Positions 1 to 4,564 of a stretch of 64,000 nt of DNA are shown one piece after another. A program made the translations under genes and the position numbers. The first letter of the stretch is position 1. Each line of letters opens with the position of its first letter. The notes beneath the pieces were generated by a model. The model saw only the letters and a program-made list of their open reading frames with translations, was not told the DNA's origin and did not search any database. The stretch comes from a virus, in UHGV virus genome UHGV-0371537; one strand, 5' to 3'.

Positions 1-346
1 GCCCCATGATAGAACCAAACTGGCCGTCGCGGTCAAAGTACGGGATGTTGTTCGTGCCTGGGAACCCCTGAGCCATGTTCACGATAGTGCCGCTCATGTT
101 CTCACCACCAGACTTGTAGTTGGTCCGGGCGGCGGCGAACATACCAAGGCGGTCAACGATCTCCTCCTTGTTGTACTCAAGAGCAGCAAAGAGGATCTTG
201 CGCTGGCTCGGCTTGAGGCTGTCAATCAGCTGAGGGATTTGACGGATGCTGTTGACCACAGAAAACTGCTTATGGTCAGTGTTGACAAAGTCCGTTACAG
301 TAATGCTCTTGGCAACCATCTTACCCACGATAACCTCCCACTTCAT
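1..346 (-). CDS. gp52: DNA topoisomerase II medium subunit (GyrA-like), N-terminal part; gene runs off the window start
   Basis: Hand translation of the minus strand from ATG near 346 gives MKWEVIVGKMVAKSITVTDF...IRQIPQLIDSLKPSQRKILFAAL, matching the conserved N-terminal IP-x-MIDG-x-KP-x-QR region of T4 gp52 / GyrA. Absent from the ORF track because it is truncated by the window edge. Confidence 0.7.
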   Translation of the reverse strand, partial: MKWEVIVGKMVAKSITVTDFVNTDHKQFSVVNSIRQIPQLIDSLKPSQRKILFAALEYNKEEIVDRLGMFAAARTNYKSGGENMSGTIVNMAQGFPGTNNIPYFDRDGQFGSIMG

Positions 347-770
347 ACGGGTCGACAATGTAGTCTACAATCCAAGTTTCAAGTTTTACCGCCAGAGGAG
401 ATTTGTCGTCTTCATCCAGGGTGTAATATCTTTTGCCAGTACCCTTCAGTGGGTCATGTATGACAACTTTGTCGCCTCGGGTATCCATAATGATCTGATG
501 CAATATCCCTGGCGTTGCTGGACTTGGCACGCAAAGAAGGTAGACATAATCATGATAGATGGTGGCAGTTTGGTTGACTCCCTTCCCACACAAGAATGGA
601 ACCCCTTCCATACAAAGAACGTCACCAATCGTGGTTTCCCAATTTGAGAAACTTTCATGCCATGTTTCAGCAACCTCGGCGACCGGGCGATCAAGCAACA
701 TCGCCAGACACGTTGACATACACGTGTCCTTTGTTGGCTGCATCTGATGAGTTAGCGGATATTCCATCAT
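321..770 (-). CDS. small papain-fold (C39-like) cysteine peptidase domain protein
   Basis: 149-aa ORF with Q..DTCMSTCLAMLL (Gln/Cys, C39-like DCG-x-ACLAM) and a downstream HQIIMD...VVIHDP His/Asp-Pro block; start overlaps the gp39 stop and the stop overlaps the gp52 start. Confidence 0.45.
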   Translation of the reverse strand: MMEYPLTHQMQPTKDTCMSTCLAMLLDRPVAEVAETWHESFSNWETTIGDVLCMEGVPFLCGKGVNQTATIYHDYVYLLCVPSPATPGILHQIIMDTRGDKVVIHDPLKGTGKRYYTLDEDDKSPLAVKLETWIVDYIVDPYEVGGYRG

Positions 771-2680
771 TCATCCTCAGTTTCAAACAGACAAACATCG
801 CTGAACCAGGTTTTGCGATAATCGGCGGCCTCATCACCGAAGCCATTCTTCAGTGACTGTTTGTAGCCGTCGTCCAGCGTGACCGTCGTAGTATACGCAT
901 CCAGGTTGTTTAGAATACGTTTGAAGTCTTCAGTGCTGTTACCGCCCAGACCTTTCAGATATTTCTTCTTCGTGATCTTCTTGGCATCAGGAGTCTTCAG
1001 GAATTCCTCATACTCGGCGTTGTTCATGAACTCATGCATCACCTTACCACACCACACACGCATATAAGGGGTGCGCAGGAGTTTCAGCCTGCCCTGACGG
1101 ACGTACTCTGGCCAGTAAGTGCAATACAAGGTGATCAGCAAGCCACGGATGTGAATGCCGTCATCGTCCGCATCGGTAGCCACAACAGTCTGTGGGTAGC
1201 GGCTGATGTCAAGGGGCTGACCGGGTACTGCGCCGCCATGGATGGTGCACAGGTTCTTGAACTCTTCGTTCGCCATCACTTTTGAGCGCGGTGCGTTCAG
1301 GCAGTTGATGAACTTACCACGAAGCGGGAACAACCCGATCTTTTTGGTGTCACGGGCGTTCAGGATAGGGTTGGAGGCGCTATCACCCTCAGTCAGCAAC
1401 AGGGAGCAGCCACTGCGGTCACCACGGGCGGTCGCCGGGTAATACTTCTCAATCTCACGGTAATCGCGCTTGCTGATATCCTTCTTGGCCTTTTCAAACT
1501 CGGCATCATCCTGGTCGTTGCGCAGAGCCGCCAGTTCTTTGCTCAGGCCAGCTGCAACGAACTCCAGCGCCTTGCGGATGAGTTTGTCGCTGGGCTTGTA
1601 GGATGTGCCAAACTGACTAACAGGAGTCGTCATACGCTCCTTGGTCTGGCTATCAAAGCGCGGGTTGTTGATGTCGGCAGCGATAAACAAGGACATGTGG
1701 TTCTTGATCATTGCTGGCTTCAGTTCGGTCTTGAACTTCTTAACCAGCTGAGGACGAATCGCAGCCACGATCTGGTCGGCCACATAATCAACATGAGGAC
1801 CACCGATGTGGGTGGCGATTGAGTTCACGTATGATGCGTGCATGAACGTACCGGATGAAGGGGCTACAGCAACAGACCAGTCCCCGGTTTCATCGACAGC
1901 GGAGCCAGCGTGGAAGTAATCAACAAAATGGCCGAAGCGGTCAATGCGGATCTGCTTACCATTAAGCACAACCTTCAGGCGCGGGTTACACGCCGCGACT
2001 TCGAATGCACGACGGTAGATCATGAGCAGGTTGTTCTGGTCAAGCCCTTTGACGCCCAGGCGAGCATAGTCAGGGATCCAGGCGATGGTGGTGCCGAACT
2101 CTTTCGGTGTATTGCTGATGACCGGATTAGACTTCTTGCTCATGTTGTCTTCAAACAGCTGGGCATAAGACTTCTTGCCGTCACTGGTAGCAACACGGAA
2201 CCACTTTGAGAACACGTTGACGAGGGACGCCCCTTCGCCATTCTGACCGCCGGACTTCTGGTTGTTGTACTCCTCGTCCTCATCGTTGAAGTTACTACCC
2301 GCATAGAGCGAGCCAAACAACATCTCAGGGAGCCACTCATTGGTGACGCCATGCTTGACCACAGGGATACCCCCGTTGTCAGCAACGATGATTTGACCGT
2401 TCATCGGGGAAACCGTGACAGTGATTTCCGTCAGGGATTTACCCTCAGGCGTCTTGCTGTGGTCAACACAGTTGGTGATGATTTCATCAAACTGTTTGAT
2501 CAGCGCCGGGGAATATTCGAAGTTGTCACGAAAGATGACTTGGTCTTTGGTTGGGTCGTACACCCACACCGTACCAACAGACGAACGGATGCTGCCCAGA
2601 TGACGCTCTGGGCGAAGTAGGATATGCTCAACGTGGGTGAGCTTCTTGTACTTGCGTTCAATATCAATTTTATTGGACAT
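767..2680 (-). CDS. gp39: DNA topoisomerase II large subunit (GyrB-like ATPase plus Toprim), single unsplit ORF
   Basis: 637-aa ORF with GHKL ATPase N-terminus (HILLRPERHLGS), and LLLTEGDSA and VATDADDDGIHI Toprim motifs; T2/T6-type unsplit architecture. Confidence 0.9.
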   Translation of the reverse strand: MSNKIDIERKYKKLTHVEHILLRPERHLGSIRSSVGTVWVYDPTKDQVIFRDNFEYSPALIKQFDEIITNCVDHSKTPEGKSLTEITVTVSPMNGQIIVADNGGIPVVKHGVTNEWLPEMLFGSLYAGSNFNDEDEEYNNQKSGGQNGEGASLVNVFSKWFRVATSDGKKSYAQLFEDNMSKKSNPVISNTPKEFGTTIAWIPDYARLGVKGLDQNNLLMIYRRAFEVAACNPRLKVVLNGKQIRIDRFGHFVDYFHAGSAVDETGDWSVAVAPSSGTFMHASYVNSIATHIGGPHVDYVADQIVAAIRPQLVKKFKTELKPAMIKNHMSLFIAADINNPRFDSQTKERMTTPVSQFGTSYKPSDKLIRKALEFVAAGLSKELAALRNDQDDAEFEKAKKDISKRDYREIEKYYPATARGDRSGCSLLLTEGDSASNPILNARDTKKIGLFPLRGKFINCLNAPRSKVMANEEFKNLCTIHGGAVPGQPLDISRYPQTVVATDADDDGIHIRGLLITLYCTYWPEYVRQGRLKLLRTPYMRVWCGKVMHEFMNNAEYEEFLKTPDAKKITKKKYLKGLGGNSTEDFKRILNNLDAYTTTVTLDDGYKQSLKNGFGDEAADYRKTWFSDVCLFETEDE

Positions 2681-2729
2681 CTGCCTATCCCGTCAATGGT
2701 AAACACACAAGATTATGTATGGGGTTGGC

Positions 2730-3314
2730 TTATAGACCAAATTTGCTGCGCCACTTTTCAACTTTGTGGTTGAATGCTTGCTCCACTTTAATGCGCGTGG
2801 CCATCAAGGAGGAACCACGGATCGCCCCTTCCCCACATCCCATGCGTGCAACATGCGTGATCAGATTATTGATGAGTTTATCCAATCTGTCTTGACTGCG
2901 ATAAGGCTGGTTGCACAACCGGATAATCCGGCCATGATAATGATGGATAAGGTTCAGATGCTTTTGAGGATCACGATCAATCAGACGGAACCAGTCTTCT
3001 TCCAACTGTTTAGAAGAAATATCGTTCACCATCGCCATGCGGGTGATGACCGAATCGATCATTTCGGCCTTGTTCAGAGAGCCGCGCATTTGGACGTCGT
3101 CATAATCCATGACATACAGGAGGTCGATAGCAGAGATGATGACGTCGGCAACTTCGCCATTCAGAGGTTCTGATGGCATACCGATACCATGAAACACATC
3201 AGACAGTTCACAAATCTCTTCACCTAATTTATTCAGGACAAACACAGGCGAGCGGTCTGGGGTATGAGCAGTGCAGTCATAGGAAGTGTCGATGACGGTG
3301 TGTAGAAATTTCAT
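2730..3314 (-). CDS. MazG-like nucleotide pyrophosphohydrolase domain protein (putative)
   Basis: 194 aa; N-terminal EEICELSDVFHG ... EVADVIISAIDL resembles the MazG EExxE...ExxD metal-binding helices. Confidence 0.45.
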   Translation of the reverse strand: MKFLHTVIDTSYDCTAHTPDRSPVFVLNKLGEEICELSDVFHGIGMPSEPLNGEVADVIISAIDLLYVMDYDDVQMRGSLNKAEMIDSVITRMAMVNDISSKQLEEDWFRLIDRDPQKHLNLIHHYHGRIIRLCNQPYRSQDRLDKLINNLITHVARMGCGEGAIRGSSLMATRIKVEQAFNHKVEKWRSKFGL

Positions 3315-3814
3315 TTCAAAGTTCCTTGTATGCGGAGACGGTTAATGTGGTCTATGATAAAGTCCATAGAGTTTTGAAAACTATATTTCCCGTTCCGAAC
3401 GTATGCATGGATCAGTGGGAGTCGACTGTATGCCAATCTGATTTTCAACAGGTCAGGCATTGTCTGGAGTTTCACGCTGGTCGCAAACAGAATATCACGC
3501 TTGAATTCTTCGGTAGACGGATCCAGGACAACAATCCGGGTAGCCGCCAACTCCTGACCATACTGCTTGGCTTCGTAGCCGTCGAGCAGACGCAGGTTGT
3601 CATCCCTATACTTCAGCCAATACCAGTAGCCCTCCATGGAGTTAAACACGCCATGCTCATAGGTAGTCACTGGGTGATGGGTAAAATGCGAGAGGAAGCG
3701 CCCGAGTTCCGTCTGGCTCCGGCTGTAGATGTTGAAGTGATTCTTACCCTCTGTTTCAGGGGTCATCTTGTTCTGTGGAACACTCATTAACAGCATCATG
3801 ATGTAGTTTCTCAA
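3311..3814 (-). CDS. hypothetical protein
   Basis: 167-aa ORF, same strand and tightly packed with neighbours; no motif recognised. Confidence 0.5.
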   Translation of the reverse strand: MRNYIMMLLMSVPQNKMTPETEGKNHFNIYSRSQTELGRFLSHFTHHPVTTYEHGVFNSMEGYWYWLKYRDDNLRLLDGYEAKQYGQELAATRIVVLDPSTEEFKRDILFATSVKLQTMPDLLKIRLAYSRLPLIHAYVRNGKYSFQNSMDFIIDHINRLRIQGTLK

Positions 3815-3841
3815 ATCAAAGTATTGCTGTGTGTAGTGAAA

Positions 3842-4039
3842 TTACTTCTTCATACAGCCCATATAACTGCAGGCCAAGCCGATAGCGGCGAATACGATGG
3901 CAAGGACAAATCGGGTGATCTGCATTTGTGATATTGTGAGCAGCCCGATCACGTTTTCGATCGTCAGGAAGAAACACACTCCAGCGACGATACCTAATTT
4001 GAACGAATTCCGTTCTTTGTTGATCTTGAACCTGTACAT
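3842..4039 (-). CDS. small membrane protein (two predicted TM helices)
   Basis: 65-aa ORF with two hydrophobic stretches (LGIVAGVCFFLTIENVIGLL, FVLAIVFAAIGLACSY). Confidence 0.4.
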   Translation of the reverse strand: MYRFKINKERNSFKLGIVAGVCFFLTIENVIGLLTISQMQITRFVLAIVFAAIGLACSYMGCMKK

Positions 4040-4084
4040 ATGTGCCTCCTGGTTGAAGCGGGGAGTTTCCTCCCCTGTAACTAT

Positions 4085-4564
4085 CTAGCCCAGAAACACT
4101 ACTAAAGTCAAACTAGTTTGCAGACCTGGGTTACTTTGGATGATACTCCAGACTTTAGATTGATATGCCGGATCATGCAAAGAGTCTGATACGACCAGGA
4201 CTTTCGGATTTCTGCCGATAAGCACATCACCCTTTTCAAACTGAAATGTGGTGAACGCGTTGTTCATGCCCACTTCTTCACGATTCAAAGTGAGTTTGAT
4301 CGTCTCCTCTTTCGCGAACATAGCTATGACTTCGAGTCCAGTTTCTTCCAAGAATTGTTTTGAAAGAATATGTTTCAGGGCTGTGGAGTGGCCTGTCTGG
4401 CGCAGAAATCGATGATAGATCGCATCGTCACGCCGTAAAAAATCAATTTTTGATTTACCACGACGAAATTCAACAACTTCAAAAGCATCAAGGATCATCT
4501 GAGTGATGAGTTCGATATGTGGGGTGATGGCGATGTTCACATCACGTTTAACCATAGATTTCAT
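4085..4564 (-). CDS. hypothetical protein
   Basis: 159-aa ORF followed by an intergenic hairpin. Confidence 0.5.
   Translation of the reverse strand: MKSMVKRDVNIAITPHIELITQMILDAFEVVEFRRGKSKIDFLRRDDAIYHRFLRQTGHSTALKHILSKQFLEETGLEVIAMFAKEETIKLTLNREEVGMNNAFTTFQFEKGDVLIGRNPKVLVVSDSLHDPAYQSKVWSIIQSNPGLQTSLTLVVFLG

Follow-up and report, generated by a model that had tools for sequence, protein, structure and literature searches.

The window analysed here is the whole 64,000-nucleotide (nt) stretch of the virus genome UHGV-0371537, a piece of an Ackermannviridae genome with ~92% DNA identity to the Agtrevirus phages AV101, Ag3 and Gloob. Four genes follow one another on its minus strand: a MazG-like gene, the gene of the topoisomerase II large subunit (hereafter gp39, after its phage T4 counterpart), a small open reading frame (ORF) of 149 amino acids (aa), and the gene of the topoisomerase II medium subunit (hereafter gp52), which runs off the window end. 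The small ORF is the subject of this work. Judged from sequence and predicted fold, its product is very probably a free-standing cysteine protease of the C39 type (papain fold). The coordinates of all features are collected in Table 1, and residue numbers count from M1 of the 149-aa ORF.

An earlier, sequence-only reading of this DNA had proposed the ORF, and it is indeed present in the ORF list with the sequence quoted there, including the motifs HQMQPTKDTCMSTCLAMLL, LHQIIMD and VVIHDP. That reading also described both of its ends as overlapping the neighbouring topoisomerase genes. At the 5' end this proved correct: the coding strand reads GAG GAT GAA TGA TGG AAT, the gp39 stop TGA (769..767) overlaps the ORF start ATG (770..768) as ATGA, and GAGGA is found just upstream. 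A second ATG at 767..765, which is an alternative start of the ORF, has one base in common with the gp39 stop. At the 3' end the tight packing was confirmed but the overlap with the gp52 ATG was not, the coding strand reading GGG TAA G ATG GTT, where TAAGATG leaves a gap of 1 nt before that ATG. The start of gp52 is itself ambiguous, since the ATG at 319..317 lies 14 nt past GGAGG and an in-frame GTG at 328..326, 9 nt upstream of the ATG, lies only 5 nt past it; gp52 overlaps the ORF only if started at this GTG. GenBank records also differ in the gp52 start, which is placed 38 nt inside the ORF in Gloob and at the ATG in phages without the ORF. Whichever gp52 start applies, gp39, the ORF and gp52 form a tight array. 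A scan of positions 1..4200 revealed no terminator-like site on the minus strand; matches in the promoter and terminator scans did not exceed the level of shuffled sequence, and only this absence is informative. The co-expression with the topoisomerase II genes that had been proposed for the ORF is supported by this gene architecture.

The ORF protein matches PHROG 4049, a family of unknown function, with an E-value of 3e-53. Homologues were detected with tblastn in 173 phage records, and a profile search against 1.84 billion cluster representatives recovered 540 clusters (50% identity) at E <= 1e-3, 227 of them at E <= 1e-10. Nearly all of the 540 clusters correspond to stand-alone proteins of 135-160 aa, and the family members were phage-type wherever their context was inspected. 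Fusion partners were sought as functional hints in ten longer homologues and were uninformative, amounting to one YunG-like domain and one zinc ribbon. The former is a C-terminal Phage_YunG-like domain (PF24591, E 3.5e-9) in protein P0033 (L019:5001-5852), encoded on a 212-kb phage-like contig from a coral metagenome, and the latter a weak match in protein P0056.

Residue conservation was calculated on an alignment of 155 representatives, each less than 50% identical to the others. Cys17 is conserved in 151 of 151 sequences and is also invariant in a second alignment (A2), His91 in 155 of 155, Asp106 and Pro107 each in 154 of 154, and Gln11 in 150 of 151. The order Gln, Cys, His and Asp/Asn that characterizes the papain-like clan CA is thus found in the family, and Gln11 precedes Cys17 by 6 residues, as Q21 precedes C27 in LahT. 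On these sequence counts the Gln/Cys...His/Asp pattern is far beyond chance. The sequence-only reading had already recognized such a pattern, and it stands for Q11, C17, H91 and D106; the His of VVIHDP (His105) is not conserved, the position being mostly Tyr, Leu or Phe, and the conserved pair is formed by H91 and D106. Several other positions are strongly conserved as well, namely Cys21, Ala23, Met24, His38, Tyr77, Val81-Pro82-Ser83-Leu84-Asn85, Gly110 and Tyr116.

The AlphaFold2 model, obtained from a 132-sequence alignment, reached a predicted local distance difference test (pLDDT) of 91.1 and a predicted template modelling score (pTM) of 0.88. The model has the alpha+beta architecture of clan CA, in which a helix begins with the Cys and a strand of the facing lobe carries the His: Cys17 opens the first helix (17-26) and His91 opens the beta-strand 90-96. 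The structures matched by this fold, with the figure attached to each match in brackets, were PCAT1 (9.5), ComA (9.4), LahT150 (9.2), the PCAT1 domain solved by nuclear magnetic resonance (8.9), PeiR (8.7) and the C39-like protein 3erv (8.6). Profile-profile comparison with hhalign aligned the family with the Cpe1 toxin family (probability 91%, E 1e-6) and with LahT-type C39 domains (probability 88%, E 2.9e-6). Both comparisons placed Gln, Cys, His and Asp-Pro in register with the catalytic residues (in LahT Q21, C27, H101 and D117-P118), which is the remote homology with aligned catalytic residues expected at the level of the C39 superfamily. The spacings are C39-like too, with 6 residues from Gln to Cys and 15 from His to Asp, versus 16-17. 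The Pfam family PF03412 was matched by 8 of 132 family members at E <= 0.01, with a best value of 5.6e-5. The close matches in the viral structure database are all labelled 'uncharacterized', and the GenBank record of Shewanella phage S0112 already names its homologue 'peptidase C39 family protein'. Neither are NlpC/P60 and CHAP cell-wall hydrolases the closest fold or profile relatives, nor was a secretion signal or a wall-binding domain found.

Several results weigh against an assignment as a C39 endopeptidase expressed early. The query protein itself stays below the Pfam gathering score, its match to C39_2 reaching 13.2 bits for a cutoff of 24 (E 0.14, residues 3-27), and it gives no match to PF03412. 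Neither NCBIfam nor PADLOC holds a model for the family when 132 members are searched, PADLOC yielding just four isolated single-member matches with E-values of 0.002-0.006. Sequence-profile matches to solved structures are individually non-significant (E 0.13-1.7 with the 132-sequence profile), and a search of the PDB sequences with a 7-sequence profile gave no match. Besides, the term endopeptidase is borrowed from the nearest relatives, and the same triad also serves papain-fold acyltransferases, amidases and deamidases; the timing in early or middle infection is likewise assumed from the gene neighbourhood, by analogy with T4.

Independent lines of sequence, profile and fold evidence nevertheless support a peptidase. 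The sequence-only reading had named two outcomes that would speak against its C39-like cysteine peptidase, an absence of peptidase matches in profile searches and a lack of conservation of the Cys and His residues in homologues. Neither was observed, as the profile comparison matches C39 peptidases and even distant homologues keep Cys and His without exception. From the profile, conservation and fold evidence we conclude that the family forms a distinct clade within the C39 superfamily, borne by phages and uncurated, with catalytic residues all intact.

Table 1. Features of the gp39/gp52 region in the window and at the same junction in relatives (L numbers are handles of compared loci)
Feature	Coordinates	Strand	Details and basis
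Stand-alone C39-like cysteine peptidase gene (predicted), PHROG 4049 member	321..770	minus	149 aa (148 aa from second ATG)
Upstream gene, topoisomerase II large subunit (T4 gp39-like, GyrB-type ATPase)	767..2680	minus	ORF list, annotation in relatives
Downstream gene, topoisomerase II medium subunit (T4 gp52-like), 5' part	1..319	minus	Annotation in relatives, sequence
5' coupling signal	767..778	minus	GAGGA Shine-Dalgarno 778..774 and ATGA/TGATG overlap; sequence
3' junction	317..338	minus	GGAGG 338..334, GTG 328..326, ORF TAA 323..321, G, gp52 ATG 319..317; sequence
446-nt block absent from otherwise collinear relatives (boundary ambiguous by 1 nt)	323..768	minus	Junction comparison, composition
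Gln11 codon CAG, predicted oxyanion-hole residue	738..740	minus	Aligned to LahT and Cpe1 Gln
Cys17 codon TGT, predicted nucleophile	720..722	minus	Aligned to LahT C27 and Cpe1 catalytic Cys
His91 codon CAT, predicted general base	498..500	minus	Aligned to LahT H101 and Cpe1 His
Asp106-Pro107 codons GAC CCA, predicted third triad member, C39-type 'DP' motif	450..455	minus	Aligned to LahT D117-P118 and Cpe1 'YDP'
Non-empty junctions in relatives	L007:708-1280; L023:447-1148		Empty junctions: L005, L006, L022

The ORF is absent from the same position in otherwise collinear relatives. At the junction of phages fGh-Ecl02, vB_CECAV_050 and dinky the sequence reads GAG GAT GAA TAA G ATG GTT and gp39 is directly followed by gp52. 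Compared with these phages, the window carries a seamless insertion of 446 nt, by which TAA becomes TGA and TAAGATGGTT is re-created at the far end, identical to the junction of the phages without the ORF. All the Ackermannviridae carriers have the ORF between gp39 and gp52, in two subfamilies (Agtrevirus Gloob and Kuttervirus Maynard). The Maynard-type allele is present in only 28 of the 232 records matching the Maynard junction and the window-type allele in about 10 records; in the remaining listed records with both flanks, the junction is empty or occupied by a homing endonuclease. The Maynard allele, whose protein is 61% identical, is joined in a different register: the old ATGGTT now serves its ORF, and gp52 receives a new N-terminus. 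In Dickeya phage LIMEstone1 the junction holds ORF014, a relative of HNH/AP2-type homing endonucleases (PHROG 953, E 5e-84), and in Salmonella phage KE30 a GIY-YIG homing endonuclease. At least four states of the junction can therefore be distinguished: empty (TAAGATG), the C39-like ORF (two alleles and registers), the HNH/AP2-type relative and the GIY-YIG homing endonuclease. On this sequence comparison, the Ackermannviridae gp39/gp52 junction is an insertion hot spot. The GC content at third codon positions (GC3) of the ORF is 0.467 versus 0.658 for gp39, a low value consistent with horizontal acquisition.

Outside Ackermannviridae, homologues sit either in stretches of small, mostly unannotated genes or, in siphovirus genomes, close to the lysis/terminase end. 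The loci inspected comprised a first group (Nonagvirus 9g, Seuratvirus KS_S4, Vid5 and PMBT14), Vequintavirinae (BIS47, DU_PP_I and pEa_SNUABM_55) and a set of others (Samunavirus FBPa45, phiVC8, Vibrio CHI, Halocynthia JM-2012, Shewanella S0112 and four metagenomic contigs), and at none of them was a topoisomerase gene found beside the homologue. An all-against-all BLASTP comparison of the ORFs of 18 loci detected no partner, substrate or immunity gene travelling with the peptidase: apart from antisense shadow ORFs overlapping the peptidase gene and the holin of related siphoviruses, only the peptidase family itself is shared across phage groups. The 18 loci contain no transporter or leader-peptide gene either, and no DNA-modification gene consistently adjoins the peptidase among them. 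Many carriers (Ackermannviridae, the Queuovirinae 9g, JenP2, KS_S4 and EC151, Vid5 and phiVC8-like phages) fall into groups that we take to have non-canonical DNA bases, presumably hypermodified thymidine, 7-deazaguanines and 2-aminoadenine, a trend to which sampling bias may contribute.

Since the junction is empty in most relatives and no partner gene is found elsewhere, the ORF is an optional cargo gene, co-expressed with the topoisomerase and not required by it. An obligatory partnership with the topoisomerase is ruled out by the empty junctions. That the ORF lies between gp39 and gp52 is no evidence of a functional tie to the topoisomerase.

The neighbouring MazG-like/gp39 boundary also varies between phages. 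An HNH homing endonuclease is present between the two genes in vB_CECAV_050 (L006:2712-3542), and also in PH4, PC3 and RPN242; in the window this boundary consists only of a short intergenic gap, at about 2681-2729. In some relatives the MazG-like pyrophosphatase gene itself (2730-3314, minus strand), which precedes gp39, bears the annotation 'putative viral tegument-like protein'; this looks like an annotation inconsistency and has nothing to do with the peptidase.

We compared the ORF with the known systems that it resembles. With the C39 domains of PCAT1, ComA and LahT (MEROPS C39, PF03412) it has in common, according to hhalign and HMMER, the order and spacing Gln-6-Cys...His-15/16-Asp-Pro and a size of about 140-150 aa. 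Unlike them, it is neither fused to nor located beside an ATP-binding cassette (ABC) transporter and has no leader-peptide substrate gene nearby. The linkage to an ABC exporter and the double-glycine leader of canonical bacteriocin-processing C39 peptidases are accordingly not found. Further differences are that a phage encodes it, that its target is presumably a foreign protein in the cytoplasm, and that the phage family has motifs of its own (H38, Y77, V-P-S-L-N 81-85 and Y116). Stand-alone C39-like proteins also exist in Peptidase_C39_2 (PF13529; for instance 3erv of B. anthracis), the only Pfam match of the query, here sub-threshold and spanning only the Cys helix. Proteins of the PF13529 type are larger (about 200 aa) and have additional decorations, and they are often secreted or associated with transporters (PMC10318531). 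The Josephin, UfSP and ZUFSP deubiquitinases are structurally less similar to the ORF protein than C39 domains, with no sequence-level signal and no ubiquitin-like context. We thus file the ORF as a phage, stand-alone, cytoplasmic variant of C39, which is not a canonical member and belongs to no curated family at threshold. In the searchable literature, no paper was found that describes this family or connects C39 with these phage genera.

On the whole, we hold it probable, and well short of certain, that the ORF is an optional cargo gene for a small, free-standing cysteine endopeptidase of the C39 branch, located in the cytoplasm and probably directed at a host substrate. The gene would borrow the transcription of the replication-gene operon, and its translation is coupled to that of gp39, so that the enzyme would be made together with the topoisomerase. 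The protein contains no pro-domain, signal peptide, transporter or toxin-delivery domain, and for this reason it is expected to be active in the infected cell once made. In the predicted active site, Cys17 at the N-terminus of the first helix would be the nucleophile, activated by His91 and Asp106 from successive beta-strands, and Gln11, six residues upstream of Cys17, would form the oxyanion hole; the sequence and the model together suggest catalysis as a cytoplasmic endopeptidase. Most likely it would cut one well-conserved protein at one specific place, probably a Gly-Gly-like site of small residues by analogy with other C39 enzymes.

The intact catalytic apparatus together with the conserved non-catalytic motifs implies one conserved substrate. 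This substrate is probably a conserved host protein, cleaved for host take-over or for counter-defence. A host substrate is favoured because no conserved phage partner accompanies the peptidase gene, and because H38, Y77, VPSLN and Y116, which lie around the predicted substrate groove, are maintained in phages that infect Enterobacterales, Vibrio, Pseudomonas and Shewanella. The patchy distribution of the ORF fits a host-specific benefit of either kind.

Other readings of the ORF were weighed against this host-directed endopeptidase. The translational coupling between gp39 and gp52 would fit a dedicated maturation protease, needed for the function of the phage topoisomerase subunits. This reading is contradicted by the presence/absence data and is close to refuted: most Ackermannviridae have near-identical gp39 and gp52 without the ORF (the Maynard flanks are 99% identical to those of dinky, and the fGh-Ecl02 flanks about 90-92% identical), and most inspected homologues outside Ackermannviridae have no topoisomerase gene nearby. 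The homologues of Queuovirinae-like siphoviruses, located no more than 1-2 kb from holin and endolysin genes, raise the question of a cell-wall peptide hydrolase or lysis accessory factor. However, these lysis-proximal cases form one related, syntenic set of phages, the gene is away from the lysis genes in Ackermannviridae, Vequintavirinae, Samunavirus and phiVC8, and the sequence contains no signal peptide, transmembrane segment or wall-binding domain, which makes such a role very improbable. Because the same Cys-His-Asp fold serves other chemistries, a papain-fold amidase, acyltransferase or deamidase, with a small molecule or one side chain as its target, was considered too, on the model of phytochelatin-synthase-like, BtrH-like or glutamine-deamidase enzymes. 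The many carriers that we assume to belong to modified-DNA phage groups would agree with this chemistry; yet genes of a modification pathway do not consistently adjoin the ORF and its closest relatives by structure and by profile are true endopeptidases, and we judge the proposal improbable. We give a similarly low rank to an isopeptidase that would remove ubiquitin-like or C-terminal-glycine conjugates, as a counter-defence against Bil-type systems or against Cap2 of the cyclic-oligonucleotide-based anti-phage signalling system (CBASS). C39 enzymes do cleave after Gly-Gly and a patchy presence among close relatives is typical for anti-defence genes, but the structural matches to deubiquitinases rank under all the C39 domains, PADLOC gave no meaningful match, no association with defence or anti-defence genes was seen in the 18 loci, and no experimental hint points this way.

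A further alternative concerns the host topoisomerases, and starts from two bacterial toxins. Cpe1 is an effector of the type VI secretion system of E. coli that cleaves GyrB between G101 and G102 (PMC12136450), and StbD-CT is a CdiA-like toxin of C. rodentium (PDB 8SSM/8SSK; bioRxiv 10.64898/2026.05.07.723447). Both are C39-fold peptidases, which cleave GyrB at G101/G102 and ParE at G97/G98; they enter the cytoplasm of the target, where this cut in the ATP lid kills gyrase and topoisomerase IV (PMC12136450; bioRxiv 10.64898/2026.05.07.723447). Neither of these papers discusses phage homologues. PDB entry 9l5u matches Cpe1, with six residue identities fitting at an offset of 323. The phage family has the same fold and the same triad, and its product is likened to these soluble enzymes, which act in the bacterial cytoplasm on a host-type protein and not on an exported peptide. 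The link is otherwise thematic, through the placement of the ORF between type II topoisomerase genes. In contrast to the toxins, the ORF has no PAAR, Rhs or CdiA delivery or entry domain and no adjacent immunity gene: its Cys lies at residue 17 with no N-terminal extension, and the downstream gene is gp52.

According to this alternative, the phage enzyme would cut the Gly-Gly of the ATP lid LHAGGKF of host GyrB and ParE and irreversibly shut down the host gyrase and topoisomerase IV, and would spare gp39 with its LYAGSNF. Several observations are in its favour. The ORF lies exactly between the GyrB-like and GyrA-like genes of the phage in two Ackermannviridae subfamilies, the alignment shows in the gp39 ATP lid a Gly-Ser where E. 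coli GyrB has Gly-Gly, and phage inhibitors of the host gyrase are known (Igy, Gip), including in phages without a topoisomerase of their own (PMC10886550). Against it, the insertion hot spot of homing endonucleases accounts for the position of the ORF without any functional link, and in the 15 contexts inspected outside Ackermannviridae none has a topoisomerase gene near the homologue. A co-variation of the gp39 ATP-lid motif with the ORF was rejected, as the motif is LYAGSNF or LFAGSNF, always with Gly-Ser, in 5 of the 5 gp39 compared, alike in phages with and without the ORF. Single G101S or G102S substitutions in GyrB do not block StbD-CT, which leaves a protection by Gly-Ser unproven (bioRxiv 10.64898/2026.05.07.723447). 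Finally, the two hhalign E-values given above do not bring the family measurably nearer to Cpe1 than to the transporter C39 domains, and the structure comparison puts it nearer to the latter. We therefore regard the cleavage of host GyrB and ParE as unlikely. An irreversible 'topoisomerase swap' module, in which the protease would destroy the host gyrase and topoisomerase IV and the co-expressed phage enzyme would take over DNA topology, seems to us just as doubtful. If true, this would be the first proteolytic killer of host gyrase in a virus and would connect interbacterial toxins with phage take-over genes.

The host-directed C39 endopeptidase that we favour belongs to a large family of 540 clusters, distributed over Ackermannviridae, Vequintavirinae, Queuovirinae, Samunavirus, phiVC8-like phages and others. 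To our knowledge, few phage proteases act outside capsid maturation and lysis. The locus offers a clean case of a cargo gene in a hot spot of the homing-endonuclease type between two essential genes, and it is relevant to the annotation of the Ackermannviridae used for phage therapy and biocontrol. The C39 toxins that cleave GyrB and ParE may supply, by analogy, a concrete lead on the target of the phage enzyme, and the identity of its substrate would reveal a new step of host take-over or a new counter-defence.

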